From: Escherichia phage S143_2
Direction: 5' to 3' (one strand)
DNA: 64,000 nt
Sequence record: MZ189261.1
The notes below the pieces were generated by a model. The model was not told the origin of the DNA. It did no database searches and saw only the letters and a list, made by a program, of their open reading frames with translations. Shown in pieces: positions 11,782 to 64,000 of the stretch (positions within the stretch are counted from its first letter, which is position 1; each line of letters opens with the position of its first letter). A program made the translations under genes and the position numbers.

Positions 11782-12252
11782 TTAATCATGTTTCCACACC
11801 CCATCGGTATTTGACCAAAGTCGCTGATTATCTGATCCTCGCCACAGCTTTTTAGTCGGAAGATTTTTCTCATACTTCCCATCAATAATAACATCAACAT
11901 ATTTAAGCATTTCTAGTTGTTTAATATCTTCAAACTTATATCCTGTCCACAACCAAATGCTTTTATTGGGATAAAGATTTTTTACTGTTTGAGCAATGCG
12001 ATGAATAACATCTCGGTTATCAGGATAGAGAGGGTCTCCTCCGGTTATAGTTAATCCTTCTATATAATCATTATTCAAACATTCAATCAATTGTTCTAGT
12101 GTTTCACCAGTGAATGGAATACCATTTCTAGCATTCCATGTTGATTTATTATAACACCCTTCGCATTTATGCAAACAACCCGTAACGAAAAGAACGACCC
12201 TGCAACCAGGGCCATTCACAAAATCGCAAGGATAAAATCTATCATAATTCAT
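11782..12252 (-). CDS. nrdG: anaerobic ribonucleotide reductase activating protein NrdG
   Basis: 156 aa; radical-SAM CxxxCxxC (CLHKCEGC); directly downstream of nrdD. Confidence 0.9.
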   Translation of the reverse strand: MNYDRFYPCDFVNGPGCRVVLFVTGCLHKCEGCYNKSTWNARNGIPFTGETLEQLIECLNNDYIEGLTITGGDPLYPDNRDVIHRIAQTVKNLYPNKSIWLWTGYKFEDIKQLEMLKYVDVIIDGKYEKNLPTKKLWRGSDNQRLWSNTDGVWKHD

Positions 12253-14066
12253 TGGTGTTTAACCCTATGCATGATTTCTTTATTTTTGCCGAGATTAAAT
12301 CCGCGTTCGTTCGGATTTCCCAAATAACCACAAGTTCTTCTTATTGTGTTCATCTTTTTAGGGTCAGTTTCTCCGCAAACTGAACAAACAAATCCGTTTT
12401 CAGTAGGAGTCATTTCATGGGTACTTCCACATGTAAAACATTTATCTACTGGCATATTAACACCAAAATAATCTAAATGTTGTGCGGCATAATCCCATAC
12501 AGCCTCAAGACCTTTTAAGTTATTTTTCATATCAGGAAGTTCAACATAAGAAATGTGTCCGCCAGTCGCAATGAAATGATATGGGGCTTCGCGAGAAATC
12601 TTTTCAAACGGAGTGATATTTTCTTCTACTGAAACATGGAAACTATTAGTGTACCAGCCTTTATCAGTAACATCCTTTACACTTCCATATTTTTCAGTAT
12701 CAAGTTTACAGAAGCGATAACAAAGGTTTTCAGCAGGTGTAGAATACAAACTAAAAGCAAAACCGGTTCTTTCAGTCCACTGTTTAAGATGAGCATTCAT
12801 TTTAGTTAAAATTTCTTGTCCAATATCACGACCGACAAGAATATTCAATTCGTGAATACCAATGTATCCTAGGGACACTGAACTTCTACCGTTTTTAAAT
12901 AACTCAATTATATCGTCATCAGGTTTAAGACGAACCCCGAATGCACCTTCTTGGTAAAGAATAGGAGCAACAGTCGCTTTAACTCCTTTTAAGGAACTAA
13001 TTCTACACATCAAAGCTTCAAAACACAAATCCATTCGTTCATTGAACAATTCGGCAAATTTCTGTTCATTGAATTGTGTTCCAATATAAGAATCTAACGC
13101 AATGCGAGGAAGATTCAGTGTTACAACACCAAGATTATTGCGTCCATCAAGAATTTCATTACCAGTCGAATCTTTCCATACACTCAAGAAACTACGGCAA
13201 CCCATTGGAGAAACTGGAACTGAAGAACCAGTAATAGCTTTATTATTCTTAACCGAAATAATGTCAGGATACATTCTTTTGCTTGCACATTCTAACGCAA
13301 GTTGTTTAATATCATAGTTCGGATCATCTTTATAAAGATTAACACCTTCTTCAACGAACATAACAAGCTTAGGGAAAATAGGAGTTATTCCATCACGACC
13401 AAGGCCTTTAATGCGGTTTTTAAGAATTGCTTTCTGAATCATTCGTTCAGTCCAGTCGGTTCCTGTACCAAATGTAATTGTTACAAAAGGAGTCTGTCCG
13501 TTTGAACTAAAGAGAGTATTTACTTCATATTCATAAGCTTGGAATGCATCGTATACGTCTTTTTCTGTTTTAGATTGAGCATAATTCAACGCATCAGCGA
13601 TTTGCCATTTTTCTGCATCTTCAACATGTTTAGCGTATGTGCGTTTAACATAAGGAGAAAGAACTTTATCGACATTCGCAAATGTAGTTCCGCCATATTG
13701 GTGTGAAGCAACTTGTGCGGTAATTTGTGCCATAATTGCAGTAGCAACGCCAATAGATTTAGGCGTTTCAATTTGAGCATTGCCTAATTTAAATCCATTC
13801 TCAAGCATCCCCTTTAAATCGACTAAACAGCAATTAGTAAATGGAAGAGCAGGAGAATAATCAATATCATGCATGTGAATGATTCCGCTTTCATGCGCAT
13901 TCATAATAAAAGACGGGACCATATTTTTGGCAATGTGCTTAGACACAATACCAGCCATAAGGTCCCGTTGAGTTGGAAAAACACGAGAATCTTTATTAGC
14001 ATTCTCGTTTAAAAGGTCTTTATTAGTTTTATGAATTAATCCTTCAATTTCTTTTTCAATTTTCAT
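12249..14066 (-). CDS. nrdD: anaerobic ribonucleoside-triphosphate reductase NrdD
   Basis: 605 aa uninterrupted; C-terminal glycyl-radical motif RTCGYLG and Zn-ribbon CFTCG...CSVCG. Confidence 0.95.
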   Translation of the reverse strand: MKIEKEIEGLIHKTNKDLLNENANKDSRVFPTQRDLMAGIVSKHIAKNMVPSFIMNAHESGIIHMHDIDYSPALPFTNCCLVDLKGMLENGFKLGNAQIETPKSIGVATAIMAQITAQVASHQYGGTTFANVDKVLSPYVKRTYAKHVEDAEKWQIADALNYAQSKTEKDVYDAFQAYEYEVNTLFSSNGQTPFVTITFGTGTDWTERMIQKAILKNRIKGLGRDGITPIFPKLVMFVEEGVNLYKDDPNYDIKQLALECASKRMYPDIISVKNNKAITGSSVPVSPMGCRSFLSVWKDSTGNEILDGRNNLGVVTLNLPRIALDSYIGTQFNEQKFAELFNERMDLCFEALMCRISSLKGVKATVAPILYQEGAFGVRLKPDDDIIELFKNGRSSVSLGYIGIHELNILVGRDIGQEILTKMNAHLKQWTERTGFAFSLYSTPAENLCYRFCKLDTEKYGSVKDVTDKGWYTNSFHVSVEENITPFEKISREAPYHFIATGGHISYVELPDMKNNLKGLEAVWDYAAQHLDYFGVNMPVDKCFTCGSTHEMTPTENGFVCSVCGETDPKKMNTIRRTCGYLGNPNERGFNLGKNKEIMHRVKHQ

Positions 14067-28312: not shown

Positions 28313-28771
28313 CTAGATTTTAATCACTGCTTTAGAAGCTTTTCCTGGTAGTCGTTTACTGTTAATAATAGCCATTCTGCATTGAAGAGTCTTCATTTTG
28401 AATGCTGGATTTTCGCGACAAACTGTAAGTCCTAACCAAAGATTTCCATCAGTTATTTCTAAACGGCCTGGACGATATTCGACACCTTCGACAAAATCTT
28501 CATCAACATCTGGACGTGCCGGCATTGATAAAAATTCTGCAACTTCTTTAACATGATTTTTTACTTTACGAAATAATTCAAAAACGTAGTTCTCATCTAT
28601 TTCTCTCTGGATAGCACGATCTAAGAGATGTTGAGAATACTTGATATGAAAGCCTGGTAGTCCAAGAGACTTTGCAGCATCTTTTATACCGGCATTTATT
28701 TTGCGGAACTCCGTTTCAAAGATTCGACGGAGTTTATTACGGCGGATAAAAACGTCAGAATTGATAGTCAT
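28313..28771 (-). CDS. regB: RegB endoribonuclease
   Basis: 152 aa; MTINSDVFIRRNKLRR...KYSQHLLDRAIQREIDENYVFELF...GRLEITDGNLWLG matches T4 RegB. Confidence 0.85.
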   Translation of the reverse strand: MTINSDVFIRRNKLRRIFETEFRKINAGIKDAAKSLGLPGFHIKYSQHLLDRAIQREIDENYVFELFRKVKNHVKEVAEFLSMPARPDVDEDFVEGVEYRPGRLEITDGNLWLGLTVCRENPAFKMKTLQCRMAIINSKRLPGKASKAVIKI

Positions 28772-28779
28772 TTTGATTT

Positions 28780-28828
28780 CTCCTCTAGTTGACAGGTCTA
28801 TAGTAACACAACTAGAGGAGAAGTAAAC
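28780..28828 (-). promoter_or_regulatory. early promoter with 12-bp perfect inverted repeat sequestering regB SD
   Basis: minus strand GTTTAC-ttCTCCTCTAGTTGtgttactatagacctgtCAACTAGAGGAGaaatcaaaATG; arms 28780-28791 and 28809-28820. Confidence 0.6.
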
Positions 28829-28832
28829 TACT

Positions 28833-29048
28833 TTATTGATAAAATGGAGTTAAAGCCCAAGATTCTTTAGATACCATATCGGCGAAATGCCTCATCTCTT
28901 CGATTTGGCGACGACGCTGGTCAGCATAGTCTTCTTCGCCTTCTTCCTTACAATCTTCAAGGTCTTCTTCAAGATACTTTAAGTATTCACTACAAATTTT
29001 GTTGACCTTTTCTTGAAAGTCCAATAACCCAGTAATAGTAGAAGCCAT
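28833..29048 (-). CDS. hypothetical acidic protein
   Basis: 71-aa ORF. Confidence 0.4.
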   Translation of the reverse strand: MASTITGLLDFQEKVNKICSEYLKYLEEDLEDCKEEGEEDYADQRRRQIEEMRHFADMVSKESWALTPFYQ

Positions 29049-29314
29049 TAGTATTTTTCCTCAGGTCGAAATACTGCACGACATGCCCACATGCTGGCTT
29101 CTTTTAGATGTTGCTTAGCATACTTAAGAGCCTGCACTGCATCCATATCTTCTTTGGTTTGTTGCTCTGATTCATTTTCTTTCAAGATATATGCTTCTTC
29201 AATCAGAGCATCAAACATCAATCCAAGACGGACTTCTGCGTCTTTAATAGCGTTCACTTTACTGATTTTATCATCGGTATGTGGCTTGTAGCCTTTGATG
29301 TCTTCAATCGACAT
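29048..29314 (-). CDS. hypothetical protein (89 aa, start at internal ATG)
   Basis: track ORF 29048..29482 overlaps neighbour; MSIEDIKGYKPHTDD... from ATG 29314. Confidence 0.35.
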   Translation of the reverse strand: MSIEDIKGYKPHTDDKISKVNAIKDAEVRLGLMFDALIEEAYILKENESEQQTKEDMDAVQALKYAKQHLKEASMWACRAVFRPEEKY

Positions 29315-29528
29315 AAGGAATTTCCTCATCGGTGGCAAGGTCATATTCGACCAATTGGATAGGCTCATTAATACCATATCCGCGTACAGTGATATCGGTT
29401 GACGGATATTTTCCAGTAATATCACCCGTTCTAAATGCTTCAATGAATGATTGCTCGCCTGAGCAACTAAACCAGGCGGCAAAACATTTTAAAACATCTT
29501 CAGACCCTTCTATAATCAATTTAGCCAT
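29304..29528 (-). CDS. hypothetical protein
   Basis: 74-aa ORF. Confidence 0.4.
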   Translation of the reverse strand: MAKLIIEGSEDVLKCFAAWFSCSGEQSFIEAFRTGDITGKYPSTDITVRGYGINEPIQLVEYDLATDEEIPYVD

Positions 29529-29890
29529 TATAGACTCTCAGTAAAGGTACGAGCTATAACGTCGCGCTGCTGTTCTGGAGTCAGAGAGTTAAAGCGAACT
29601 GCATAACCGGATACACGGATGGTCAGCTGCGGATATTTTTCTGGATGCTTAACTGCATCTTCCAGAATTTCACGACGCAGAACGTTAACGTTCAGGTGTT
29701 GACCACCTTCAATTTTAACTTTAGGTTGATGTTCAATTTCAATTTCACGGGCATTCAAACCGTAGAAAATTTCCGGGTCTACAATAGCGTCTTCTTTAAA
29801 AGTCTTAGAGACGATAATCCGGGCTTGAGTACCGTCTTCAAAATAAATAGTGCCTTTATGTGCACCTTCAAGAATTTGATATGCTTTCAT
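29528..29890 (-). CDS. autonomous glycyl radical cofactor (GrcA/YfiD-like)
   Basis: 120 aa; C-terminal ~60 aa ([60 protein letters not shown]) nearly identical to E. coli GrcA glycyl-radical domain. Confidence 0.85.
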
Positions 29891-29896
29891 ATAACC

Positions 29897-30253
29897 TCAA
29901 TTAGAAAATAAATTTATCCAAGATTTTTCTTTAATCAAAAATGGGTCGGAATTAAACGCCATTAAACTTTGAGTGATTAATCCCTTAAATGGCCCATCAA
30001 TAAATTCCATTTTGAAATGCGGAATACTAGTCATCAACCGTGCATTAGGAGCAGTACAAAGAACCTGCTGCCCTGCGAACGGACCTTTAGTCAAACGATA
30101 TCGTTTAGGTTTAAAATGGTAAATCTCATAATTTTCTACAAGAGCCCTTTTATTGCATACTGGGCTGTTATAACAATACTCAAAAACTTCAATAGTGGTC
30201 ATCATTGCATTCCAATCACAAAAAATTGAGGACGAGCAATACCGCCGATGCAA
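29897..30253 (-). CDS. hypothetical protein (start uncertain)
   Basis: 118-aa ORF, overlaps upstream gene. Confidence 0.4.
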   Translation of the reverse strand: MHRRYCSSSIFCDWNAMMTTIEVFEYCYNSPVCNKRALVENYEIYHFKPKRYRLTKGPFAGQQVLCTAPNARLMTSIPHFKMEFIDGPFKGLITQSLMAFNSDPFLIKEKSWINLFSN

Positions 30254-30741
30254 TATTTGCTTTTGCAGCAGTGCTGTACTGATTTAATATGGACATTGTA
30301 AATCTTATCCATATCAGGAGCTTTAATAGGCTCGTCAATTATATACAGAATACGAGAAAGCGTTAATCCACGGAATTTAGAACCTTCATTACCAATAAAA
30401 CTACGGACAGAATCAGTAAATAAACGGAATCGAATATCATCGCTAGAATAACGAGAAAATTCTTTTTTAATGTTGCCAGCAGAAATTTTAGCATAAGCTG
30501 AAGTATTAGAAAGAACAATAACTGTTCCACCATCGAGCAGCCAATTAGCGGCAAAATTAGTTACTGCAGTTGATTTACCAGATTGTCTGCCACCATCTAA
30601 ACGAAGTGTACAGTACTGCTTGAGTACGTCTTCAAATGGTGGGGCATAACCGTTCTTACAAATTTCTTCTACTCTAGCATCAGAATGGTGTGTAAAAGCA
30701 TTCATCAGGGATAGATAAGGTCCAGTTAAAAATGTTCTCAT
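30202..30741 (-). CDS. small P-loop NTPase
   Basis: 179 aa; Walker A GGRQSGKST, Walker B-like LYIIDEP. Confidence 0.45.
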   Translation of the reverse strand: MRTFLTGPYLSLMNAFTHHSDARVEEICKNGYAPPFEDVLKQYCTLRLDGGRQSGKSTAVTNFAANWLLDGGTVIVLSNTSAYAKISAGNIKKEFSRYSSDDIRFRLFTDSVRSFIGNEGSKFRGLTLSRILYIIDEPIKAPDMDKIYNVHIKSVQHCCKSKYCIGGIARPQFFVIGMQ

Positions 30742-30914
30742 TTAGTTTCTCTTAAGGTTGGGGCCATTCCGTGGCACATGTTAGGTCCTTCGACTCGCTA
30801 TGTAAACCCATTACCGCACTTGGGCTCGACCTTATTACAGGTTGGAAAAGGTACATCACTCAGAGGACTCGACGTTCATAAGGAGAGGTTGCGTTTCCCT
30901 TTATTAGGCAAGAA

Positions 30915-31244
30915 TTATACTCTAGGCTTTTGAGCTTGTTTGGTATTGGATTCCCATGCGGCTTTGGTAATTTTGTTAGCGGCATAACCAAAGGCACTAG
31001 ATAGAACACCTTTAGAGTTGAATACATCCAATCCAATAAGTACACCGGCTGTGTTAAATTTAGGAGCAAAGTACGCATTAGTTTTAGAAAGAGCTTTTTT
31101 CAATTCAGGGTCTTGAACCAAGCCATCAAAAACGCCTTTACTATTTACTTTATATGTTACTTTGGGATTTTTAGCTTCTTCGATAGCAGCTTTCTGTTCC
31201 GCAGATAATGTAACTTCAGTGATAAACTCTTGATATGTTTTCAT
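30915..31244 (-). CDS. internal protein (CTS-bearing), IPII-like position
   Basis: 109 aa; N-terminal MKTYQEFITE capsid targeting sequence. Confidence 0.6.
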   Translation of the reverse strand: MKTYQEFITEVTLSAEQKAAIEEAKNPKVTYKVNSKGVFDGLVQDPELKKALSKTNAYFAPKFNTAGVLIGLDVFNSKGVLSSAFGYAANKITKAAWESNTKQAQKPRV

Positions 31245-31282
31245 ATGTTTCCTTTAAATGTAAATAGGCCTAAGTATCGGCC

Positions 31283-31861
31283 TTAATTACCACGGGCTGC
31301 ATTAGCAACGGCATAAGCGTACTGAACATTAGCGTCTTTAAACGTACCTTTAGAGGTATCTATTTCTGCCTTAAAGCCGCCTTTAGCCATAACATCGGCA
31401 AATTCTTTACGGAAGGCCATTGCATCAAGACCTTTCCATGATGATTTATGCTTGGCAAATTCAAGACCTGCGAAGTTGACAGCTTTAGCCAATTTATTAT
31501 CAATGACCCATTTACCGGCTTTAGGCACAAACTTCGGTCCTTTTTGTTTAGAGAACAGTTTTAAATTCCAGCGACGAAGATCACTGTCGGCTTTAACAAA
31601 AGCTGCGTCTAAGTTACTAGCAACAACATCTTCAATATGAGCAAATTTAAGTCCGTCAACTTCAATATTTAGATCGTTACGCCAGCGAAGTCCTTCCCAA
31701 GCGAAGGCTTTAAAATCAGAAGCCTTTGTGGCTAGATATCGTTCAATTGGAGCAGTTTTAGGGTCAAAGCCGTTTCCACCACGATAAGTCCACTCGTCCT
31801 TATTAATGCCTTGAGCTTTTCCTGCAAAGGCCTCGGCGATAAATTCTTTATACGTTTTCAT
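31283..31861 (-). CDS. ipIII: internal protein III-like (CTS-bearing)
   Basis: 192 aa (T4 IPIII 194 aa); N-terminal MKTYKEFIAE. Confidence 0.6.
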   Translation of the reverse strand: MKTYKEFIAEAFAGKAQGINKDEWTYRGGNGFDPKTAPIERYLATKASDFKAFAWEGLRWRNDLNIEVDGLKFAHIEDVVASNLDAAFVKADSDLRRWNLKLFSKQKGPKFVPKAGKWVIDNKLAKAVNFAGLEFAKHKSSWKGLDAMAFRKEFADVMAKGGFKAEIDTSKGTFKDANVQYAYAVANAARGN

Positions 31862-33287: not shown

Positions 33288-33772
33288 ATATACGCTTTCC
33301 AAGTTCCTGTTTTAAATGTTGAGATTACGCGTTTCGCGCGATTAGGTGTCTGACGATACCATTTAGATTGGGCTAGATTTACTGCCGCTTCGTCCCAACG
33401 TTTCTGTTGAAGCATACGAAGAGAATTAGTAAAACCAGCGACGCCTGCTACACCCATTTGGAAGACCATATTGACCAATGCACATCGACGAACTGCATCT
33501 AAAGAATCGTATACCGGTTTAAGTTTAGCATTACCCAAGATTCCGCGAACAGCTTTATCAACGTCTTCATTAAATAACTTTTCAGCCTCATCAAGGGTAA
33601 TTGTACCGTTGCATTTACGTCCGATCATTCTGTCAAGTTCAGCTTTAGCTACGGCTAAAGACGGGTTCTTTGTTACTAAATGACCTATGCCAATCGTCCA
33701 AAAGCCTTCAGTGTCTTTGTATAAAGTCAGTCTAAGACCTTCGTCATTACGAAGCATTTCAAATATATTCAT
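33284..33772 (-). CDS. e: lysozyme (endolysin), gene e
   Basis: 162 aa from ATG 33772: [32 protein letters not shown]...; matches T4 lysozyme incl. catalytic E11/D20/T26 context. Confidence 0.9.
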
Positions 33773-42192: not shown

Positions 42193-42269
<77 letters not shown>

Positions 42270-42273
42270 TATT

Positions 42274-42348
42274 TGGCGGACGTGATAGGATTCGAACCTA
42301 TAACCAATCGCTTAACAGGCGATCGCTCTGCCATTGAGCTACACATCC
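42274..42348 (-). tRNA. tRNA-Asn (anticodon GUU)
   Basis: 75-nt cloverleaf; anticodon stem ATCGC/GCGAT, loop CUGUUAA; T-arm GGTTCGAATCC; encoded CCA. Confidence 0.8.
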
Positions 42349-42352
42349 AAAT

Positions 42353-42439
42353 TGGTGGGGAGTGATGGAGTCGAACCACCCGAGTCGCAATGACAATGGA
42401 TTTACAGTCCACACCGCTACCTCTACGGGATAACTCCCC
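42353..42439 (-). tRNA. tRNA-Tyr (anticodon GUA)
   Basis: 87 nt with long variable arm; anticodon loop CUGUAAA; acceptor GGGGAGT/ACTCCCC; encoded CCA. Confidence 0.75.
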
Positions 42440-42451
42440 TAATTCATAATT

Positions 42452-42526
42452 TGGTGGCCCTGGGTGGAATTGAACCACCATCTGGCGATTATGAGTCGCT
42501 TGCTTGAACCTTCCAGCTACAGGGCC
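42452..42526 (-). tRNA. tRNA with CAU anticodon (Met or Ile2)
   Basis: 75-nt cloverleaf; anticodon loop CUCAUAA; position after Thr corresponds to T4 tRNA-Ile. Confidence 0.75.
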
Positions 42527-42527
42527 T

Positions 42528-42604
42528 TGGTGCTGATTGACGGAATCGAACCGCCGACCTTCTCATTACAAGTGAGTTGCTCTACCTACTGAGCTAAATC
42601 AGCA
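42528..42604 (-). tRNA. tRNA-Thr (anticodon UGU)
   Basis: 77-nt cloverleaf; anticodon loop CUUGUAA; T-arm GGTTCGATTCC. Confidence 0.8.
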
Positions 42605-42608
42605 AAAC

Positions 42609-42698
42609 TGGCGGAGGCGATAGGATTTGAACCTATGAGTCGCCGGAGCGACTGCCGGTTTTCAAGACCGGTGCATTAAACCACTCTGCCACGCCTCC
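42609..42698 (-). tRNA. tRNA-Ser (anticodon UGA)
   Basis: 90 nt with long variable arm; anticodon loop CUUGAAA; acceptor GGAGGCG/CGCCTCC. Confidence 0.8.
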
Positions 42699-42700
42699 AG

Positions 42701-42774
42701 TCTCCATACAAGGATTTGAACCTTGGGCCTCCTGATCCCAAATCAGGCGCTCTACCAAACTGAGCTACACGGAG
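42701..42774 (-). tRNA. tRNA-Pro (anticodon UGG)
   Basis: 74 nt; anticodon loop UUUGGGA; T-arm GGTTCAAATCC; CCA not encoded. Confidence 0.75.
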
Positions 42775-42784
42775 TAAATTAAAT

Positions 42785-42858
<74 letters not shown>

Positions 42859-42863
42859 AAATT

Positions 42864-42950
42864 TGGTGCGAGAAGTGGGACTCGAACCCACAAGGAAATC
42901 ATTCCGCAGCATTTTAAGTGCTGTGCCTTTACCAATTTGGCCATTCTCGC
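42864..42950 (-). tRNA. tRNA-Leu (anticodon UAA)
   Basis: 87 nt with long variable arm; anticodon loop CUUAAAA. Confidence 0.8.
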
Positions 42951-42951
42951 G

Positions 42952-43024
42952 CTGGGAATAAAGGACTCGAACCTTTGCATCCTGGAATCAAAATCCAGTG
43001 CCTTACCAACTTGGCTAATTCCCA
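42952..43024 (-). tRNA. tRNA-Gln (anticodon UUG)
   Basis: 73 nt; anticodon loop UUUUGAU; T-arm GGTTCGAGTCC; CCA not encoded. Confidence 0.75.
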
Positions 43025-48843: not shown

Positions 48844-50576
48844 TGGAAATGATTAGCAGTAGCCTTAATTGGTTCGTTGGTGTTGTCGAGGACAGAATGG
48901 ACCCATTAAAACAAGGGCGAGTTCGAGTTCGAGTCGTTGGTCTTCATCCGGCGCAGAGAACACAAGGTGATGTACAAGGTATTCCTACAGAAAAACTTCC
49001 ATGGATGACTGTTATTCAACCTATTACGTCTGCATCAATGTCAGGTATTGGTGGTTCTGTTACAGGTCCTGTTGAAGGAACTCGAGTATATGGTCATTTC
49101 TTAGACAAATGGAAAACAAACGGGATTGTACTTGGTACATATGGCGGAATAGTACGTGAAAAGCCTAATAGACTTGAAGGTTTTTCAGACCCGACAGGTC
49201 AGTATCCGCGACGTTTAGGTAATGATACGAACGTATTAAACCAAGGTGGTGAAGCTGGTTATTATTCGAACTCTAACGTAATTCAAGATAACAACTTGGA
49301 TTACGGTATAAACCCAGATGATACAGATTTAGCAAATATTCCAGAAGATGACGACCCTAATTTTACAATAACAGAAATGTTACGTCGTGATGAAGGTCTT
49401 CGTGATAAAGTGTATTGGGACCATCTCGGGTATCCTACAGTAGGTATTGGACACCTTATCGTAATGGAAAAGACCCGAGATATGTCTCGAATTAATAAAT
49501 TGTTATCTGATCAAGTAGGGCGTGAAGTAACAGGAAATCCTGGAACTATTACATTAGAAGAAGCAACAGCGTTATTTGAGAAGGACCTTGCTAAGATGCA
49601 GAAAGACATTCGTTCTAATTCTAAAGTAGGTCCTGTTTATGCTAAAATGAACAGATCTCGTCAAATGGCATTAGAAAACATGTGCTTCCAGATGGGCGTT
49701 GGTGGTGTAGCAAAATTCAATACTATGCTTAAAGCAATGGCCACAGGTGATTGGAAAACCGCATACAAATCTGGACGCGATTCGTTATGGTTCCAACAGA
49801 CTAAAGGGCGTGCTTCACGTGTAACAACAATTATTTTAACTGGTAACATGGAATCATATGGCGTTCCTGTTAAAACACCACCTTCACCAGGAGTTGGTGC
49901 TGATTTAGTTACTAGAAATACCGATCCAGAAGACCCGGCTGGTCCTCCTGTTCCGTTAGATTCACGTATCCTTTTTAAAGAACCTGAATCAAGTTATCGT
50001 GGTGAATATCCATACGTTCATGCTATGGAAACAGAAAGCGGTCATATCCAAGAATTTGACGATACTCCAGGTAATGAACGTTATCGCTTAGTTCATCCAA
50101 CAGGGTCATATGAGGAAGTTTCTCCGTCTGGGCGTCGTACTCGTAAAACTGTAGAAGACCTTTTTGACATCACTAATGGCGATGGGAACTTCTTGATTTC
50201 TGGTGATAAACTTGTTAACGTTGGTGCTAATGAAATATATTATAACATGGCAGACCGCCTCCATCAAATAGACGGCAATGACACAATCTTTATTCGTGGT
50301 AACCAATCTAAAACTGTTGAAGGCGATGGAACTCTTTACGTTAAGGGTAATATCAAAATAGTTGTTGACGGAAATGCAGATATTCTTGTTAAAGGTGATG
50401 CTAAAACTCAGGTCGAAGGGAATCATGATTACACAGTCAACGGAAACGTTAAATGGACTGTTAATGGTAATGTTGATATGACTGTTGCCGGTGATTGGGC
50501 AGAAACAATGTCTACAATGAGCTCAGTAGCTTCAGGACAATACACTGTTGACGGATCTCGTATTGATATTGGGTAA
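48843..50576 (+). CDS. 5: baseplate hub and tail lysozyme gp5
   Basis: 577 aa; OB-fold N-term, lysozyme domain (EMLRRDEGLRDKVYWDHLGYPTVGIGHL), C-terminal VxGxxxxx beta-helix repeats. Confidence 0.95.
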   Translation: MEMISSSLNWFVGVVEDRMDPLKQGRVRVRVVGLHPAQRTQGDVQGIPTEKLPWMTVIQPITSASMSGIGGSVTGPVEGTRVYGHFLDKWKTNGIVLGTYGGIVREKPNRLEGFSDPTGQYPRRLGNDTNVLNQGGEAGYYSNSNVIQDNNLDYGINPDDTDLANIPEDDDPNFTITEMLRRDEGLRDKVYWDHLGYPTVGIGHLIVMEKTRDMSRINKLLSDQVGREVTGNPGTITLEEATALFEKDLAKMQKDIRSNSKVGPVYAKMNRSRQMALENMCFQMGVGGVAKFNTMLKAMATGDWKTAYKSGRDSLWFQQTKGRASRVTTIILTGNMESYGVPVKTPPSPGVGADLVTRNTDPEDPAGPPVPLDSRILFKEPESSYRGEYPYVHAMETESGHIQEFDDTPGNERYRLVHPTGSYEEVSPSGRRTRKTVEDLFDITNGDGNFLISGDKLVNVGANEIYYNMADRLHQIDGNDTIFIRGNQSKTVEGDGTLYVKGNIKIVVDGNADILVKGDAKTQVEGNHDYTVNGNVKWTVNGNVDMTVAGDWAETMSTMSSVASGQYTVDGSRIDIG

Positions 50577-50579
50577 TAT

Positions 50580-51095
50580 ATGGCACAAATACTTCCTTTA
50601 AATACCGACTTAGGAGAAGACATGGAAGGGGCGTCTATTGACGTCCTTTTTACTCCACAGTTAGAAACAACCGAAACTTTAGTGTCAATAAATATAACAG
50701 ATTATGAACCGACACAAGGCATTACGGTGGATGGTAACCGTTTATATGGAACATATGAAAGTGTGTTTAGCTTTTCTTCAGATGCATTGAAATACCGATT
50801 AAATGATGATTTTGAAACCGCATCTTCATGGGATGATTTACCAAAAGATGAATCTACACAGTTATATTTGTGGAGAGCTCCTCAGAATCTTCGTAAAGTG
50901 TTTAGTTATACGGTTGAAATGATTTATAACTACCAAGAAGAAAGTTCATCAGGCGGTTCTAGAAGTGACTCTGGTACAGAACCTCCACCGGCTCCAGTAC
51001 AAAAAACTCTTACTAAGGTTTATACAAAAACTATAGTAGGAAATTGGAGCAAATGGGCTCATCAATTACGAAACTATGTTTATGTGAGGCCGTGA
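50580..51095 (+). CDS. hypothetical protein (gene 5.1 position)
   Basis: 171-aa ORF between 5 and 5.4. Confidence 0.5.
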
Positions 51096-51097
51096 AA

Positions 51098-51391
51098 ATG
51101 TCAGGCTTAAGTTACGACAAGTGCGTTACAACAGGTCATGAAGCATGGCCTCCTACTGTAATAAATGCTTCCCAATCTAAAGTATTCACCGGCGGTATTC
51201 CTGTTCTTGTGGCAGGAGACCAAATAACACCCCATACAGAAATTAAAAAACCATACGAGACTCATGGAGGTGTTACTGAACCTCGTACATCTAAAGTATA
51301 CGTCACCGGTAAAAAGGCTGTTCAAATGGCTGACCCAATTTCATGCGGGGATACTGTTTCTCAGGCCTCGTCAAAAGTCTTTATAAAATAG
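51098..51391 (+). CDS. 5.4: PAAR-repeat spike tip protein gp5.4
   Basis: 97 aa from ATG 51098 ([19 protein letters not shown]...); size equals T4 gp5.4; track start 51044 extends upstream. Confidence 0.7.
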
Positions 51392-51399
51392 GAATTAAA

Positions 51400-53373
51400 A
51401 TGGCAAACACTCCTGTAAATTATCAATTAACCCGAACAGCGAATGCTATTCCCGAGATTTTTATCGGGGGCACATTTGCCGAAATCAAACAGAACATTAT
51501 TGAATGGCTCAATGGGCAGAATGAATTTCTTGATTATGATTTTGAAGGTTCACGCTTAAACGTATTGTGCGACCTTTTAGCATATAACACTCTTTACATC
51601 CAACAGTTCAGTAATAGTGCAGTGTATGAAAGTTTTATGCGTACTGCAAACTTGCGTAGTTCTGTTGTACAAGCGGCTCAAGATAACGGATATCTGCCTT
51701 CATCTAAATCAGCAGCACAAACAGAAATTATGCTCACATGTACGGATGCATTAAATAGAAACTATATCACCATTCCGCGTGGCACTCGTTTCTTAGCATA
51801 CGCTAAAGATACTTCTGTTAACCCGTATAACTTTGTTTCTACTGAAGATGTCATTGTAGTTAAAGACAAAAATAACCAATATTTCCCACGTCTTCGATTA
51901 GCTCAGGGACGTATTGTTCGTACTGAATTAACATTTGATAAATTAAAACCTATCATTATTCGTGATAAGAACATTGACCGTAATTTAGTTAAGTTGTACG
52001 TTGATGGAGCAGAATGGATTAACTGGACACGTAAGTCGATGGTTCACGCTGGTTCTACGTCAACGATCTATTATATGCGTGAAACAGTTGATGGGAACAC
52101 CGAATTTTATTTTGGTGAAGGCGAAATCTCTATTAACACGTCAGAAGGTGCGTTAACGTCTAACTATATTGGTGGCCTTAAACCTGTTCAGGGTTCTAAA
52201 ATCGTAATTGAGTATATTTCTACTAATGGCGCAGATGCTAACGGTGCTGTAGGATTTTCTTATGCTGATACATTAGCTAATATCACGGTAATCGATATTA
52301 ACGAGAACCCTAGCAATAACCCAGACTTTGTTGGGGCCGACGGCGGTGGTGACCCTGAAGATATTGAACGTATCCGCGAATTAGGCACAATTAAACGCGA
52401 AACTCAACAACGTTGTGTAACCGCTTCCGACTATGACACATTCGTCTCTGAGCGGTTTGGTTCTATTATTCAAGCAGTTCAAACATTCACAGATTCGTCT
52501 AAACCTGGGTATGCATACATTGCTGCTAAGCCTAAATCTGGATTGTATTTGACTTCTGTCCAACGTGATGATATCAAAAACTATTTGAATGATTATAACT
52601 TAGGGACTATTACACCTGTTGTTATTTCGCCTGATTATTTGTTTATCAAAATGAATATCAAAGTTACATACGCGTTGAATAAACTCCAAGAATCAGAACA
52701 ATATCTTGAAGGGCAGATTATTAATAAAATTGACCGTTATTATATTGAAGATGTAGAAATTTTTAACTCATCGTTTGCAAAATCTAAAATGCTAACTTAT
52801 GTCGATGATGCAGATATTTCTATTATTGGTTCTTCAGCTACTATTCAAATGGTTCGCGAAGTACAAAACTTCTATAAAACGCCTGAGGCCGGTATTAAAT
52901 ACAATAATCAGATTAAAGATAGATCGATGGAATCTAATATATTCTCGTTTGATTCGCACAGACCTAATCCAGAAAATGCAAACGAAACTATTAAATACGG
53001 TGTTCGCATAGTATCTTCCGACCGTAATGACCGTGGCATAGGTCAAGTTATTATTGGTCCATTTGCAGACGGTGATGTTGTTGAAAACGAAAATATACAA
53101 CCTTATACAGGTAATGATTTTAATAAACTTACTGTTACTGACGGACGAAACAAATACTATTCAATTGGTGAAGTGAATTATCCTGCCGATTCGATTTATT
53201 GGAACATTGCTAAAATTGACCTCACTTCAGACCGTTTTGAAGTTCAAACAATTGAACTTTATTCCGACCCTGCAGATGATATTATTTTTACAAAGGATGG
53301 TTCTTTAATCGTATTCGAAAATGACTTACGTCCTCAGTACTTAACTATAGATTTGGAGCCTATTTCACAATGA
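51400..53373 (+). CDS. 6: baseplate wedge protein gp6
   Basis: 657 aa from ATG 51400: MANTPVNYQLTRTANAIPEIFIGG matches T4 gp6. Confidence 0.95.
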   Translation: MANTPVNYQLTRTANAIPEIFIGGTFAEIKQNIIEWLNGQNEFLDYDFEGSRLNVLCDLLAYNTLYIQQFSNSAVYESFMRTANLRSSVVQAAQDNGYLPSSKSAAQTEIMLTCTDALNRNYITIPRGTRFLAYAKDTSVNPYNFVSTEDVIVVKDKNNQYFPRLRLAQGRIVRTELTFDKLKPIIIRDKNIDRNLVKLYVDGAEWINWTRKSMVHAGSTSTIYYMRETVDGNTEFYFGEGEISINTSEGALTSNYIGGLKPVQGSKIVIEYISTNGADANGAVGFSYADTLANITVIDINENPSNNPDFVGADGGGDPEDIERIRELGTIKRETQQRCVTASDYDTFVSERFGSIIQAVQTFTDSSKPGYAYIAAKPKSGLYLTSVQRDDIKNYLNDYNLGTITPVVISPDYLFIKMNIKVTYALNKLQESEQYLEGQIINKIDRYYIEDVEIFNSSFAKSKMLTYVDDADISIIGSSATIQMVREVQNFYKTPEAGIKYNNQIKDRSMESNIFSFDSHRPNPENANETIKYGVRIVSSDRNDRGIGQVIIGPFADGDVVENENIQPYTGNDFNKLTVTDGRNKYYSIGEVNYPADSIYWNIAKIDLTSDRFEVQTIELYSDPADDIIFTKDGSLIVFENDLRPQYLTIDLEPISQ

Positions 53374-56300
53374 CAGTAAAAGCGCCAGCAGTCACAAGTC
53401 TCAGAATATCCAAGTTGTCCGCTAACCAAGTTCAAATACGCTGGGATGACGTTGGTGCTAATTTCTACTATTTCGTAGAAATCGCTGAGACTAAAACGGC
53501 GGATGGGGAAATAATTCCACCTGCCAGCTACAGATGGATAAATTTAGGATATACTCCTAATAGCAACTGGTTCGAAAGTAGCTTAGACCCATTAACTTCT
53601 TATATTATTCGTGTATCAACTGCCGCCGAAGGCTTCGAGAGATCTGATTGGGTATATACCGAAATATTTGAATCATTTCAGACTAACGCGTATACATTTC
53701 AACATATGATTGAAATGCAATTGGCTAACACTTTTATTAGAGAAAAATTTACAAATAACAACACGGCTTATGTCGATTTTAATAAAGACACTATAATGGC
53801 AGCTCTAATGAATGAATCATTCCAATTTAGCCCTGCTTATGCGGATATTTCATCTATTAAAAATTTCATTATTGGCGAAAATGAGTATCATGAAATTCAA
53901 GGTTCTATTCAACAGGTGTGTCATGATATAAACCGTGTTTATTTGATGGAATCCGAAGGAATTCTTTATTTGTTTGAACGGTATCAGCCTGTGGTTAAAG
54001 TCTCTAATGATAAGGGACAAACCTGGAAATCGGTTAAATTGTTTAATGACCGTGTAGGGTACCCTGTATCAAGAACAGTGTATTACCAGACAGATTATAC
54101 CACGTATGTTCTTGGGTATGATAAATTATTTTACGGCCGTAAATCAACTGACGTTCGTTGGTCTGCTGATGATGTGAGATTTAGTTCTCAAGATATAACA
54201 TTTGCTAAAATTGGTGACCAGTTAAATTTAGGATTTGATGTAGAAATATTTGGTAACTACGCATCATTACCTGCTAACGTATCACGTATTGCAGAAGCTA
54301 TCGTTTGCAATGACGATTACGTATATGTTGCTGCTCGAGATAAAGTTCGGTTTATTAAAACTAGTAATGCCCCTATTGATTCAGACCCGTTATCTCCGAC
54401 ATATTCCGAACGTTTGTTTGAACAAGAAACATTTAACATCACAGGTAACCCTAAGGCAGTTTGCTATAAAATGGATTCTGTCGGTGGTAAAATATTTGCA
54501 CTGATTATCGGTGAAGTTGTTAATCTTAACGATGACCCGAGGACCACTCCTATTGTTGATTCTGCTGATAAAGGTGTTTACGTTCTAGACCATGATGCTG
54601 GCACATTTAAACGTGTGTTTGGTAATACTGAAGAAGAACGTCGCCGTATTGAACCAGGGTACACCAGTATGTCTACTGATGGTGTTGAGTTATCTATTTC
54701 ATCTAGTAATTTTAAATTTCTAGAATCGGATATTGTTGGTGACCCAAAAACACAAGTCAAGTATGGTTTAATCGGTGCTGTTAAATATGAGTATCCTCGT
54801 GAATGGCTGGCTGATAAACATTATCATATGATGGCATTTATTTCAACTGAAGACTCTCAATGGGAATCGTTCACTCCCCAACCAATGGAATACTATGCTG
54901 AGCCATTCTTTAGTTATTCTAGAAAGTCTGGTACTCGTTGTTGGATTAATAACTCAGACAAGGCCGTTGTAATTTATTCTGATTTACTTTACACTAAAGT
55001 TATTGAGAATCGTCCGCTTAGTTCTTCAGATCGAGAAGTTCATGAATATTGGAAGGATGGCGACTGTACAATAGTGATGCCTAACGTAGATTTCACCGGA
55101 TTTAAAAAATATGCATCCGGCATGATTTTCTATAAAGCATCAGGTGAGATTATTTCTTATTATGATTTTAGTTATCGTGTTAGAGATAACGTTTCTATAA
55201 TTTGGAAGCCTACTAATATATTCTTAACAGCATCGTTACAAAACCAAGAAAAAGATACCACATGGACTCCTGTAGAAGAGAACGGTATTGCAGACCCAGA
55301 TTTACGTCCATTGCTCACTACAATGATGCCAGAGTCTTATCTTTTAGATAATACAAACTTCGAAGCATTCTGCGAGGCTTATATTCAGTATCTTTCTGAC
55401 GGTTATGGGACCCATTATAACAACCTTTTGAATCTTATTAAAAATCAATATCCGCGAGAAGAACATGCGTGGGAATACTTATGGTCTGAGATTTATAAAC
55501 GAAACATTTACTTAAACGCCGAAAAACGCGATTTAGTGTCTCGTTTCTTTGAATCAAGAAGTTATGACTTCTATTCAACTAAAGGAACTGAAGCATCATA
55601 TAAATTCTTGTTTAAAGTGCTTTATAACGAAGATGTTGAAATTGAAATTGAATCTAGTTCCGGGACTGAATATGATATCATCATTGAATCTGATTCGTTG
55701 ACAGAAGATTTGGTCGGACAGACCATATACACCGCGACAGGACGTTGTAATGTGACGTATATCGAGAGAAGTTACTCTAAAGGTAAATTACAATGGACCG
55801 TAACAATTCACAACCTATTAGGTCGTTTAATCCAAGGACAGGAAGTTAAAGCTGAAAGACTCCCTGGTTTTGAAGGTGAAATTGTTCGTGGTATTAAAGG
55901 TAAGGAGCTTTCTCAGAACAACATCGATTACATAAATCGTGGTAGAGCATACTACGTAATGAAGATTAAATCTAAACTTCCATCATCTCGTTGGAAATCA
56001 GACGTATTACGTTTTGTTCATCCAGTTGGATTTGGATTTATCGCAATTACCCTTCTCACAATGTTTATTAACACCGGATTAACACTTAAACATGTTGAAA
56101 CCATTATTAATAAATACAAAAACTATAAGTGGGATTCTGGATTACCAACTAAATATGCAGACCGAGTGGCTAAATTAGACCCACAAGGAAATGTTGAGTT
56201 TAACCCTATTACAGGTGAAGCGATATATGAAATAGGCCCTATGGCTGGTCAAGATTATCCATTGCCTGAAGATTATAACGCTGAAAACAATAACTCCATA

Positions 56301-56468
56301 TTTCAAGGTCAACTTCCATCGGAACGACGTAAACTGATGAGCCCATTATTTGATGCGTCTGGAACAACATTCTCTAGATTTAGAGATTTGGTTGAACAGC
56401 GGTTAATCGATAATGTAGGAAATCCAAGAGACCCCGTGAATCCACCACAGGTTAAATTAGATGAATGA
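53370..56468 (+). CDS. 7: baseplate wedge protein gp7
   Basis: 1032 aa, identical length to T4 gp7; synteny. Confidence 0.95.
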   Translation: MTVKAPAVTSLRISKLSANQVQIRWDDVGANFYYFVEIAETKTADGEIIPPASYRWINLGYTPNSNWFESSLDPLTSYIIRVSTAAEGFERSDWVYTEIFESFQTNAYTFQHMIEMQLANTFIREKFTNNNTAYVDFNKDTIMAALMNESFQFSPAYADISSIKNFIIGENEYHEIQGSIQQVCHDINRVYLMESEGILYLFERYQPVVKVSNDKGQTWKSVKLFNDRVGYPVSRTVYYQTDYTTYVLGYDKLFYGRKSTDVRWSADDVRFSSQDITFAKIGDQLNLGFDVEIFGNYASLPANVSRIAEAIVCNDDYVYVAARDKVRFIKTSNAPIDSDPLSPTYSERLFEQETFNITGNPKAVCYKMDSVGGKIFALIIGEVVNLNDDPRTTPIVDSADKGVYVLDHDAGTFKRVFGNTEEERRRIEPGYTSMSTDGVELSISSSNFKFLESDIVGDPKTQVKYGLIGAVKYEYPREWLADKHYHMMAFISTEDSQWESFTPQPMEYYAEPFFSYSRKSGTRCWINNSDKAVVIYSDLLYTKVIENRPLSSSDREVHEYWKDGDCTIVMPNVDFTGFKKYASGMIFYKASGEIISYYDFSYRVRDNVSIIWKPTNIFLTASLQNQEKDTTWTPVEENGIADPDLRPLLTTMMPESYLLDNTNFEAFCEAYIQYLSDGYGTHYNNLLNLIKNQYPREEHAWEYLWSEIYKRNIYLNAEKRDLVSRFFESRSYDFYSTKGTEASYKFLFKVLYNEDVEIEIESSSGTEYDIIIESDSLTEDLVGQTIYTATGRCNVTYIERSYSKGKLQWTVTIHNLLGRLIQGQEVKAERLPGFEGEIVRGIKGKELSQNNIDYINRGRAYYVMKIKSKLPSSRWKSDVLRFVHPVGFGFIAITLLTMFINTGLTLKHVETIINKYKNYKWDSGLPTKYADRVAKLDPQGNVEFNPITGEAIYEIGPMAGQDYPLPEDYNAENNNSIFQGQLPSERRKLMSPLFDASGTTFSRFRDLVEQRLIDNVGNPRDPVNPPQVKLDE

Positions 56469-57465
56469 TTCAAGTGTTATCTATCGTGCAATAGTTACAT
56501 CAAAATTTAGAACAGAGAAAATGCTGAATTTTTATAATTCAGTTGGGGATGGAGATGATAAGAACTCCATTTATATTACGTTTGGACGTTCAGAGCCTTG
56601 GGCGTCAAATGAAAATGAGGTGGGCTTCGCCCCACCTTATCCTACAGATTCTGTTCTTGGTGTTACTGATATGTGGACCCATATGATGGGCACCGTTAAA
56701 GTTTTACCTTCAATGTTAGATTCTGTTATTCCTAGACGTGATTGGGGAGATGTGCGATATCCAGACCCTTACACGTTTAGAATTAACGATATAGTCGCAT
56801 GTAATACTGCTCCGTACAACGCGACAGAAGTTGGAGCTGGTTGGTTAATTTACCGTTGTTTAGATGTCCCTGACGTAGGGCTCTGTTCAATAGAATCTTT
56901 AGATAATAAAGATGAATGTCTTAAATTGGGTGGTAAATGGACTCCGTCTGTTCGTTCTATGTCTCCTCCTGAAGGCAGAGGCGATGCTAATGGGGTTATC
57001 GAAACCGGTGATGGATATATTTGGGAATATCTTTATGAGATTCCTGCTGATGTGTCAATTAACCGTTGCACTAACGAATATCTTGTAGTTCCATGGCCGG
57101 AAGAAATTAAAGAAGACCCCACCCGTTGGGGATATGAAAATAACTTAACTTGGCAACAAGATGACTACGGTTTGATTTACCGTGTTAAAGCTAATACGAT
57201 GCGGTTTAAAGCATATTTTGATTCTGTTTATTTCCCTGAGGCAGCTTTGCCTGGTAACAAGGGTTTTAGACAGATATCAATTATCGCAAACCCGTTAGAA
57301 GCTAAGAAAAATCCAAATGACCCTAATGTTAAAGCAGAAAAGGATTATTACGACCCTAGAGACCTGCAACGTCATTCCGGTGAAATGATTTATATGGAAA
57401 ACCGACCACCTGTTATTATGGCAATGGACCAAACAGAAGAAATTAACATTTTGTTTATGTTTTAA
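56461..57465 (+). CDS. 8: baseplate wedge protein gp8
   Basis: 334 aa, same as T4 gp8; 8-nt overlap with gene 7. Confidence 0.95.
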   Translation: MNDSSVIYRAIVTSKFRTEKMLNFYNSVGDGDDKNSIYITFGRSEPWASNENEVGFAPPYPTDSVLGVTDMWTHMMGTVKVLPSMLDSVIPRRDWGDVRYPDPYTFRINDIVACNTAPYNATEVGAGWLIYRCLDVPDVGLCSIESLDNKDECLKLGGKWTPSVRSMSPPEGRGDANGVIETGDGYIWEYLYEIPADVSINRCTNEYLVVPWPEEIKEDPTRWGYENNLTWQQDDYGLIYRVKANTMRFKAYFDSVYFPEAALPGNKGFRQISIIANPLEAKKNPNDPNVKAEKDYYDPRDLQRHSGEMIYMENRPPVIMAMDQTEEINILFMF

Positions 57466-57468
57466 TTA

Positions 57469-57493
57469 GGGAGCCTTCGGGCTCCCATTTTTG
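57469..57493 (+). terminator. rho-independent terminator after gene 8
   Basis: GGGAGCC-UUCG-GGCUCCC hairpin followed by AUUUUUG. Confidence 0.75.
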
Positions 57494-57497
57494 TATC

Positions 57498-57505
57498 TAT
57501 AAATA
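57498..57505 (+). promoter_or_regulatory. late promoter TATAAATA (for gene 9)
   Basis: exact late consensus 32 nt upstream of gene 9 ATG. Confidence 0.65.
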
Positions 57506-57537
57506 GAATATAATATCGGACAACAAAAGGCAGAATT

Positions 57538-63902: not shown

Positions 63903-63908
63903 TGAAAA

Positions 63909-63922
63909 GGGCCTTCGGGCCC
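63909..63922 (+). other. stem-loop with UUCG tetraloop after wac (weak terminator)
   Basis: GGGCC-UUCG-GGCCC 7 nt after wac stop; no strong U-run. Confidence 0.45.
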
Positions 63923-63934
63923 TAAAGGATTTAT

Positions 63935-64000
63935 ATGTCAGGTTATAATGCACAAAACCCTAAAGAATTAAAGGATGTAATATTACGTCGTTTAGGCGCT
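63935..64000 (+). CDS. 13: neck protein gp13, N-terminal fragment (continues past window end)
   Basis: MSGYNAQNPKELKDVILRRLGA matches T4 gp13 N-terminus. Confidence 0.85.
   Translation, partial: MSGYNAQNPKELKDVILRRLGA

Follow-up and report, generated by a model that had tools for sequence, protein, structure and literature searches.

A T-even phage homolog of grcA whose radical-domain codons were probably overwritten by the host gene

The gene considered here is an open reading frame of 120 codons plus TAA with an ATG start, on the minus strand at 29528..29890 of the window, by which we mean the whole 64,000-nucleotide (64-kb) stretch of Escherichia phage S143_2 that was analysed (MZ189261.1). 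The closest relative, Shigella phage phi25-307 (NC_055734), matches the region at 97% identity; it is a Mosigvirus, within the RB69-like Tevenvirinae, and its orthologous gene is annotated grcA. In T4 the ortholog is vs.6, and homologs of T4 genes flank it in the window: vs.7 (29900-30205), vs.5 (29360-29528) and regB (28319-28771). The gene order in the window, vs.8-vs.7-vs.6-vs.5 ... regB-vs.1-vs-tk, is that of T4 and RB14, and the order vs.8-vs.7-vs.6-vs.5 ... regB, on the early-gene strand, is kept in RB14, T4, phi25-307, Jiaodavirus and Karamvirus. A GAGG Shine-Dalgarno sequence, read from the sequence, lies 4 nt 5' of the vs.6 ATG (29895..29898, minus strand) and overlaps the stop codon of the vs.7 ORF (29897..30253) as TGAGG. 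At the other end the vs.6 stop overlaps the vs.5 start as TAATG, and codons 118-120 lie immediately 5' of the vs.5 start. A scan for promoters and terminators over 28700-31400 returned sites no commoner than in shuffled controls.

Tequatrovirus, Mosigvirus, Jiaodavirus, Karamvirus, Slopekvirus and Pseudotevenvirus all have this gene at a length of 120 codons, with the N-terminal type and the neighbours in common, and T4-like genomes have one single place that matches it. Earlier work counted it as one of a small number of ORFs without known function that every T4-like genome of the time shared, and reported a Pfam match and a speculated role in nucleotide metabolism (Nolan 2006). The gene itself is already known: its T4 ortholog has been characterised, and it is annotated as a matter of routine.

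The vs.6 product is a small standalone protein of 120 residues in which a C-terminal glycine-radical domain is the only recognised domain. Its sole Pfam match, Gly_radical (PF01228, E=1.8e-17), covers residues 60-101 and corresponds to the last 42 positions of the profile. The best sequence match in the PDB is the NMR structure of YfiD (GrcA) of E. coli, 6OWR (E=1.4e-41, residues 21-120), and the next is residues 696-759 of pyruvate formate-lyase (PFL). The PFL-type motif RVSGYAV occupies residues 92-98; the codon table and the alignments to 6OWR and PFL place G95 opposite YfiD G102 and PFL G734, and Gly95 (GGT, 29606..29608, minus strand) is the predicted radical glycine. A full-length match to phrog_1209 (E=3.3e-62) aligns residues 1-120 with positions 1-121 of the 121 in the profile. 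The NCBIfam model for GrcA, TIGR04365, aligns over residues 18-120 and gives 157.5 bits, which is below its equivalog cutoff of 170 bits; E. coli GrcA scores 233.9 bits and T4 vs.6 scores 151.1, likewise below the cutoff. Since the validated T4 protein also falls short, what the cutoff registers is a bacterial N-terminal half, not the function. Judged by sequence, the window protein is a phage-type GrcA homolog, not a TIGR04365 equivalog. The original prediction of a GrcA-like glycyl-radical protein, with a similar T4 gene (Y06I) that repairs oxygen-damaged PFL, agrees with these matches: the T4 ortholog vs.6 shares 111 of 120 residues, and the rescue is quoted in PMC8683613.

The gene divides into segments of different character. 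Codons 1-60 (29711..29890, minus strand) encode a phage-specific N-terminal half, the counterpart of the YfiD half that is disordered by NMR and binds cleaved PFL (cPFL). Codons 61-117 (29540..29710, minus strand) encode the glycyl-radical loop and the C-terminal helix and constitute the putative host-derived conversion tract, whose 3' edge is formed by codons 118-120 and the stop (GAG AGT CTA TAA, 29528..29539, minus strand). With E. coli GrcA and grcA taken from NZ_CP023386, a global alignment matches residues 60-120 at 60 of 61 positions, the sole change being T to I at residue 75; the near-identity predicted for the last ~60 residues, RVSGYAV included, is borne out. In nucleotides, the comparison with E. 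coli grcA gives 7 differences over the 183 positions of codons 61-121, six of them synonymous, and four over the 171 nt of codons 61-117 (97.7% identity). One of these four produces T75I (at 29667); the others turn a third position into A, in codons 83 and 105 (G to A, at 29642 and 29576) and 112 (C to A, at 29555). All four are absent from 5,426 E. coli genomes, among which the best identity is 96.2%, and they look like drift after conversion towards the AT-richness of the phage. Over the same 171 nt, the identity to E. coli grcA is 100% in RB14 and OES_C-2 (both Tequatrovirus) and RPN187 (Mosigvirus) and 99.4% in T4. Among bacteria it is 98.8% in Escherichia sp. MOD1, 92.4% in Citrobacter and 91.2% in Salmonella, the last two with an identical protein, and 86-87% in Klebsiella.

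The high protein identity had been read as a sign of recent acquisition. However, some 80 GrcAs of Enterobacterales and Pasteurellales have the same C-terminal 61 residues with few or no changes. Because the C-terminal protein sequence is near-invariant across Enterobacterales, protein identity is no evidence of recency, and only synonymous sites are informative. At the nucleotide level the expectation that identity to the host should exceed that of other phage genes does hold for the tract: in a megablast of the 64-kb window against the 5,426 complete E. coli genomes, 29520-29712 is the only chromosomal match among those listed, the other listed match being a tRNA-Tyr on a plasmid, and the window from 1 to 25000 and from 50001 to 64000 matched nothing. 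The suggested comparison of codon usage gives a divided answer. Total GC of the tract (47.4%) is in the top 0.4% of 57-codon windows of the phage, and all five of its Leu residues are encoded by CTG, a codon that serves only 9% of Leu in the phage; neither CAI (0.64 against a mean of 0.69) nor GC3 (85th percentile) sets the tract apart from phage genes.

The transition between the two halves is abrupt. A maximum chi-squared test against E. coli grcA divides the gene at a breakpoint, nt 178, before which identity is 46% and after which it is 96% (permutation p<=0.0005), and the codon table has a sharp boundary at codon 60/61; the control pairs, grcA of E. coli with that of Salmonella and of Klebsiella, have no breakpoint. 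Codons 1-60 are phage-like in composition (GC 35.6%, GC3 25%) and under purifying selection (dN/dS ~0.13). Their nucleotide identity to the window gene is 89% in T4, 74-76% in Jiaodavirus and Karamvirus and 57-60% in Slopekvirus and Pseudotevenvirus, and their dS between phage genera is 0.35-1.4. Between T4 and the Mosigvirus RPN187, dS is 0.35 in the N-terminal half (10.5 of 37.7 synonymous sites) and 0 in the tract (0 of 43; Fisher p=2.5e-4); between the window phage and T4 it is 0.44 and 0.074 (Fisher p=0.008). The corresponding values for bacterial grcA, between E. coli and Salmonella, are 0.53 and 0.46, and the equality of the two halves in bacteria means that no special constraint accounts for the phage pattern. 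The predicted recent acquisition thus applies to the tract, in which codons 61 to ~117-120 are host-like, but not to the whole gene, of which codons 1-60 are 46% identical to the host and conserved among phages.

The edges of the tract are also informative. Its 5' boundary is identical in every phage examined, and the tract lies wholly within the structured half of YfiD (residues 61-127). T4 and RPN187 begin to differ 12 nt upstream of the tract on one side and right after the vs.6 stop codon on the other, and that codon is also where resemblance to E. coli is lost. Of the seven differences between the window gene and E. coli grcA, three cluster in codons 118-120 and the stop, and phages have five mixtures of host and phage bases in codons 118-120, for example GAG AGT TTG in RB14, GAA AGT TTG in T4, GAG AGC CTG in OES_C-2 and GAG AGC CTA in RPN187. 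In a neighbor-joining tree of the tract, Tequatrovirus and Mosigvirus are nested inside Escherichia with 99.5% bootstrap support. The direction of transfer is from host to phage: E. coli grcA keeps the Escherichia-Citrobacter-Salmonella pattern in both halves. Transfer from phage to host was rejected on the same ground, E. coli grcA fitting the expected bacterial relationships throughout. The pflB gene was likewise considered as a donor and rejected, as the residues of the tract are of the grcA type.

A parallel case is found in phages of Klebsiella. Klebsiella-infecting Jiaodavirus combines a phage-type N-terminal half with the Klebsiella residues LLDAVEH and the GC-rich synonymous codons of Klebsiella in the tract, and its breakpoint is likewise at codon 60/61. 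The Jiaodavirus tract is 94-96.5% identical to one Klebsiella allele, vs 86-88% to E. coli; across the few Klebsiella alleles compared the range is 90.6-96.5%, none reaching 100%. Phage 15882-3 has one difference from a Klebsiella allele in the first 124 nt. Jiaodavirus groups with Klebsiella in the tree of the tract (81.5% bootstrap). Among close Jiaodavirus relatives dS is 0.46 in the tract and 0.20 in the N-terminal half; a higher divergence of the tract would be expected from separate donors, the contrast being non-significant (p=0.13). A search for the donor of the tract in Jiaodavirus PKO111, whose host is K. oxytoca, gave only 88-91% identity to the Klebsiella-like alleles compared (P0033, P0027 and P0034). 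An independent sample, from IMG/VR, gives the same picture: identity to E. coli is 98.2-100% for six contigs of the T4/Mosigvirus type, one Jiaodavirus contig matches Klebsiella at 95.3%, and other lineages are at most 85% identical to every bacterium sampled, save for one contig (L137) with a bacterial-type GrcA. No host-like tract was found in the copies from Karamvirus, Slopekvirus, Pseudotevenvirus, Krischvirus and T5-like phages, which are 72-85% identical to the sampled bacterial grcA genes and so are without sign of recent conversion. Host tracking was not seen in the pairs Karamvirus-Enterobacter, Pseudotevenvirus-Citrobacter/Cronobacter and Slopekvirus-Klebsiella (75-85%).

According to one account, E. 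coli YfiD and T4 Y06I, of ~14 kDa each, are the only two validated "spare part" proteins (PMC8683613). PFL-AE, the activase of PFL, installs a glycyl radical on each, and each restores the activity of O2-cleaved PFL (Wagner 2001, as quoted in PMC8683613). In YfiD, residues 1-60 are disordered by NMR and residues 61-127 are structured, and the N-terminal half is required for binding to cPFL and for efficient radical installation (PMC13450708). A protein that is 92.5% identical to Y06I would be expected to behave in the same way, and we infer by this analogy that the window protein is radicalised by PFL-AE and restores cleaved PFL. With an N-terminal half only ~25-30% identical to that of YfiD, its affinity, its regulation or even its target could differ. 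A further reservation is the T75I change within the radical domain.

An AlphaFold2 model of the window protein has a mean pLDDT of 68.7. The radical domain, modeled at a moderate pLDDT of 60-72, superposes on PFL (1CM5) with an rmsd of 0.8 A over 43 columns, and the model matches 6OWR with a TM score of 0.75 (E=4.8e-6). The predicted fold of the radical domain is that of PFL residues ~693-759, at moderate model confidence. Residues 1-53 are modeled as four beta-strands with pLDDT ~80; a Foldseek search with this N-terminal domain gave only non-significant KOW/SH3-like matches (E>=0.3) and no significant neighbour.

The following model is proposed to explain these observations. The window gene is the Mosigvirus ortholog of T4 vs.6/Y06I; with good probability it encodes a PFL spare part, an autonomous glycyl-radical cofactor of ~14 kDa, and is an old phage gene whose radical-domain codons were overwritten by host grcA through gene conversion. 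During infection in microaerobic surroundings, PflA (PFL-AE), the activase of the host, would install the radical on Gly95, and the radical domain (residues ~54-120) would replace the piece that PFL loses when O2 cleaves it at Gly734, restoring the production of acetyl-CoA and formate in the infected cell. The phage-specific N-terminal half would correspond to that half of YfiD which helps it bind cleaved PFL. As to its history, sequence comparison shows the gene to be a mosaic with defined edges and host-specific content, its tract being younger than the rest: a phage gene inherited vertically, in which codons 61 to ~117-120 have been replaced by the grcA sequence of the host. Homologous gene conversion with host grcA DNA during infection is the likely route, both crossovers being confined to the sole segment in which phage and host have usable homology. 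Gene conversion is the source of the tract that its sequence points to, and the conversion could be neutral. Such a route fits the biology of T4, which has a very active UvsX-dependent recombination system and shows marker rescue from cytosine-containing plasmids with short homologies. On this model at least two independent events took place, one from E. coli into Tequatrovirus/Mosigvirus and one from Klebsiella into Jiaodavirus. The broader proposal, that the radical half of vs.6 is a standing hot spot repeatedly overwritten by the grcA of the current host in strictly lytic T-even phages, we regard as evenly balanced.

Several other readings of the mosaic have to be weighed. That host reads were mis-assembled into the phage contig has a negligible probability. 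The high identity itself, and nothing further, would speak for such an artefact. Against it, the reading frame runs on through the junctions, the T4 reference and ~486 independent phage records (>=95% identity) also contain the tract, and the window copy has its four phage-specific substitutions, none of which is seen in the 5,426 E. coli genomes. A recent capture of the whole E. coli grcA gene, the N-terminal part having simply diverged, would account for the 96% identity of the C-terminal 183 nt, and the reach of TIGR04365 over residues 18-120 suggests that the N-terminal half is distantly GrcA-like. Such a capture is nevertheless highly improbable, given the step at codon 60/61 down to 46% nucleotide identity, the presence of the same N-terminal type and neighbours across six genera of Tevenvirinae, the N-terminal dS of 0.35-1.4 between phage genera, and the equal synonymous rates of the two halves in bacterial grcA. 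The opposite reading, in which the acquisition is ancient and the nucleotide identity results from purifying selection on the protein, codon bias or an RNA element, is scarcely credible. It draws on the near-invariance of the protein tract in Enterobacterales and Pasteurellales and on the high expression and codon bias of grcA. However, bacteria whose protein is identical differ at 8-14% of the nucleotides of the tract (dS 0.38-0.60), other phage lineages under the same protein constraint reach only 72-85% identity to any bacterial grcA, the codons of the tract are host-type and not phage-type, and the phages of Klebsiella have synonymous codons of the Klebsiella type.

Two further alternatives leave the mosaic itself in place and concern its spread and its function. 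Host sequence may have entered the T-even phages of E. coli by a single conversion, with subsequent spread between Tequatrovirus and Mosigvirus through recombination in co-infected cells, in which case conversion by the host would not recur. In its favour, mixed infections allow free recombination among T-even phages, all phages examined share one 5' boundary, and E. coli grcA is too uniform to separate donors (best identity 96.2% in 5,426 genomes). We consider this possible but doubtful. What T4 and RPN187 share stops exactly where their homology to E. coli runs out, which is unexpected for exchange between phages; the last three codons occur in five mixtures of host and phage; the tract of Jiaodavirus has the higher dS (0.46 vs 0.20, non-significant at p=0.13); and a second, independent event of the Klebsiella type exists in any case. 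Repeated conversion of E. coli phages is favoured by these sequences over one event followed by spread, because the shared block ends precisely at the limits of host homology. As for function, the protein may have a different job, acting as a decoy or modulator that titrates PFL-AE, inserting into intact or inactive PFL or TdcE and so redirecting the fermentation of the host, or serving the phage NrdD. The N-terminal half, which in YfiD is concerned with partner recognition, is phage-specific and under selection (dN/dS ~0.13), the homolog in phage ZPAH1 lies right after nrdG, the Krischvirus homolog lies beside a glutaredoxin gene, and a role in nucleotide metabolism was the early speculation (Nolan 2006). 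A different job is nonetheless unlikely, since the radical domain is PFL-type (78-79% identity to PFL 696-759) and not NrdD-type, and T4 Y06I rescued cleaved PFL in vitro according to PMC8683613. The position of the nrd genes is also relevant here. The window contains nrdG (11782..12252) and an uninterrupted nrdD (12249..14066), with which the vs.6 gene had been thought to pair for anaerobic growth, but they are 15.5 kb away with many genes between, and the link is thematic only; in T4 the distance from vs.6 to nrdD/nrdG is 17-21 kb. The known activase of GrcA-type proteins is host PflA, not NrdG.

The noteworthy part of these findings is a tract of 171 nt that is 98-100% identical to the host within a gene otherwise 46% identical, carried by phages that are never lysogenic and that destroy the DNA of the host, together with the parallel Klebsiella-type tract in phages of Klebsiella. 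The literature searched contained no prior description of the nucleotide-level mosaic or of a host-tracking tract, and vs.6 goes unmentioned by Petrov (2010); an earlier remark elsewhere is possible. The host-tracking conversion tract is apparently an undescribed, if modest, evolutionary pattern. If conversion is recurrent, vs.6 would offer a natural and easily assayed system for the frequency with which virulent phages recombine with their hosts across short homologies, a caution against dating transfers from protein identity, and possibly a short marker of the recent host genus in T-even phages. If the hot spot is real, vs.6 would evolve in concert with the host gene, in its E. coli form in Tequatrovirus and Mosigvirus and in its Klebsiella form in Jiaodavirus. 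Also of interest is the conserved N-terminal half that is specific to the phages: in YfiD the role of the corresponding part is still described as enigmatic, and the phage half provides a ready-made natural domain swap for the biochemistry of PFL repair.

Of the known systems, the nearest is T4 vs.6/Y06I (NP_049730), likewise of 120 amino acids and identical to the window protein at 111 of 120 residues (92.5%). The T4 gene has the same placement between vs.7 and vs.5, upstream of regB, and the same combination of a phage-type N-terminal half with an E. coli-like tract of identical 5' boundary. Seven of the nine substitutions fall in the N-terminal half; in the radical domain, residues 73 and 75 are H and T in T4 and R and I in the window protein. 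The tract has four changes from E. coli per 171 nt in the window phage, a Mosigvirus, and one in T4, a Tequatrovirus. E. coli GrcA/YfiD (P68066; 6OWR; TIGR04365) is also a standalone protein of ~14 kDa with a PFL-type glycyl-radical domain, and has the same radical-glycine motif and C-terminal helix. It differs in its N-terminal half, which in the window protein is 7 residues shorter and only ~25-30% identical, and in its genomic setting, the chromosomal ung-grcA locus as opposed to an array in the early region of the phage. The C-terminal glycyl-radical domain of PflB (residues 696-759; 1H16, 2PFL), which is the segment that the spare part replaces, has the same fold and is 78-79% identical over residues 57-120 of the window protein. 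Unlike that of PflB, the radical domain of the window protein is not fused to a catalytic barrel, and it is of the grcA type and not of the pflB type, for which the sequence is LTKEQQQDVITRTFTQSM. Other phages, namely Jiaodavirus, Karamvirus, Slopekvirus, Pseudotevenvirus, Krischvirus, the T5-like Demerecviridae and Aeromonas Ishigurovirus, encode GrcA-like proteins that are also small, begin in the MKAYQ manner and have a radical domain of the PFL type. The copies in Tevenvirinae have length and gene order in common with the window gene, whereas the gene is near the tRNA region in one T5-like phage and directly downstream of nrdG in Aeromonas phage ZPAH1.

The radical-domain tracts of the Klebsiella-infecting Jiaodavirus phages may not all share one history. 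Among the close relatives 15882-3, Ra_O-1 and PKO111 (loci L097-L099), the tract is 91-96% identical and the phage-specific N-terminal half 96-98%, whereas the E. coli phages show the reverse pattern. The greater divergence of the tract suggests that these three phages acquired it from different Klebsiella or Raoultella donors. T5-like Demerecviridae also carry a GrcA-like gene (L089, 420-788; L093, 415-783; IMG/VR loci L151-L188), which encodes a 122-aa protein with the MKAYQ start of the T4-type proteins. Their radical-domain DNA is at best 72-77% identical to any bacterial grcA sampled, and by this comparison these genes show no trace of recent conversion by the host.

Two GrcA sequences from Logan/ENA assemblies, P0015 and P0038, join an E. 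coli-type GrcA body to a PflB-type end of about 17 residues (LTKEQQQDVITRTFTQSM). One cluster of such PflB-tailed proteins has 900 members, every one of them on a contig of about 1 kb. Either short-read assembly has produced chimeras across the repeat shared by grcA and pflB, or the two genes have undergone real conversion in bacteria. A 19-kb IMG/VR contig classed as viral (L137, IMGVR_UViG_2706794630_000006) encodes a bacterial-type GrcA (MITGIQITKASNEALLN...), whose tract is 91% identical to Yersinia grcA; the contig is probably bacterial DNA, or the flank of a prophage, within a viral collection.

The N-terminal half of vs.6, the GrcA-like gene of the window, is predicted to form a four-stranded beta unit (residues 1-60, window 29711-29890; AlphaFold2 model mb172697b5a17, pLDDT ~80). 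The equivalent half of E. coli YfiD, in contrast, has been reported to be disordered by NMR. A Foldseek search for structural neighbours of the predicted unit returned only KOW/SH3-like matches, none of them significant.

Among the matches listed in a megablast of the window, the only E. coli match besides the grcA tract is the tRNA-Tyr region (~42350-42442). This region shares 91.5% identity with an annotated tRNA-Tyr of a 102-kb E. coli O111:H8 plasmid, and 264 plasmid places matched in total. It lies in a cluster of ten tRNA genes (Arg, Asn, Tyr, Met, Thr, Ser, Pro, Gly, Leu, and Gln) on the minus strand at 42193-43024. The window also carries two homologs of the T4 lysozyme gene e: the e ortholog (33290-33772) and a divergent second homolog with 40% amino acid identity (49368-49859, plus strand).

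In other Straboviridae the GrcA-like gene lies within the nrd neighbourhood. In Aeromonas phage ZPAH1 (L088, 428-814) it is directly downstream of nrdG, which it overlaps, with genes for thioredoxin and glutaredoxin after it; its neighbour in Krischvirus (L090 and L091, 367-783) is a glutaredoxin gene. Such a location might point to a functional connection with the anaerobic RNR in those phages. In the window, nrdD and nrdG occupy 11782-14066 on the minus strand. The T4 nrdD is split by a group I intron containing I-TevII, and the homing endonuclease gene mobC separates it from nrdG; nrdD of the window, by comparison, is an uninterrupted ORF of 605 aa that abuts nrdG.
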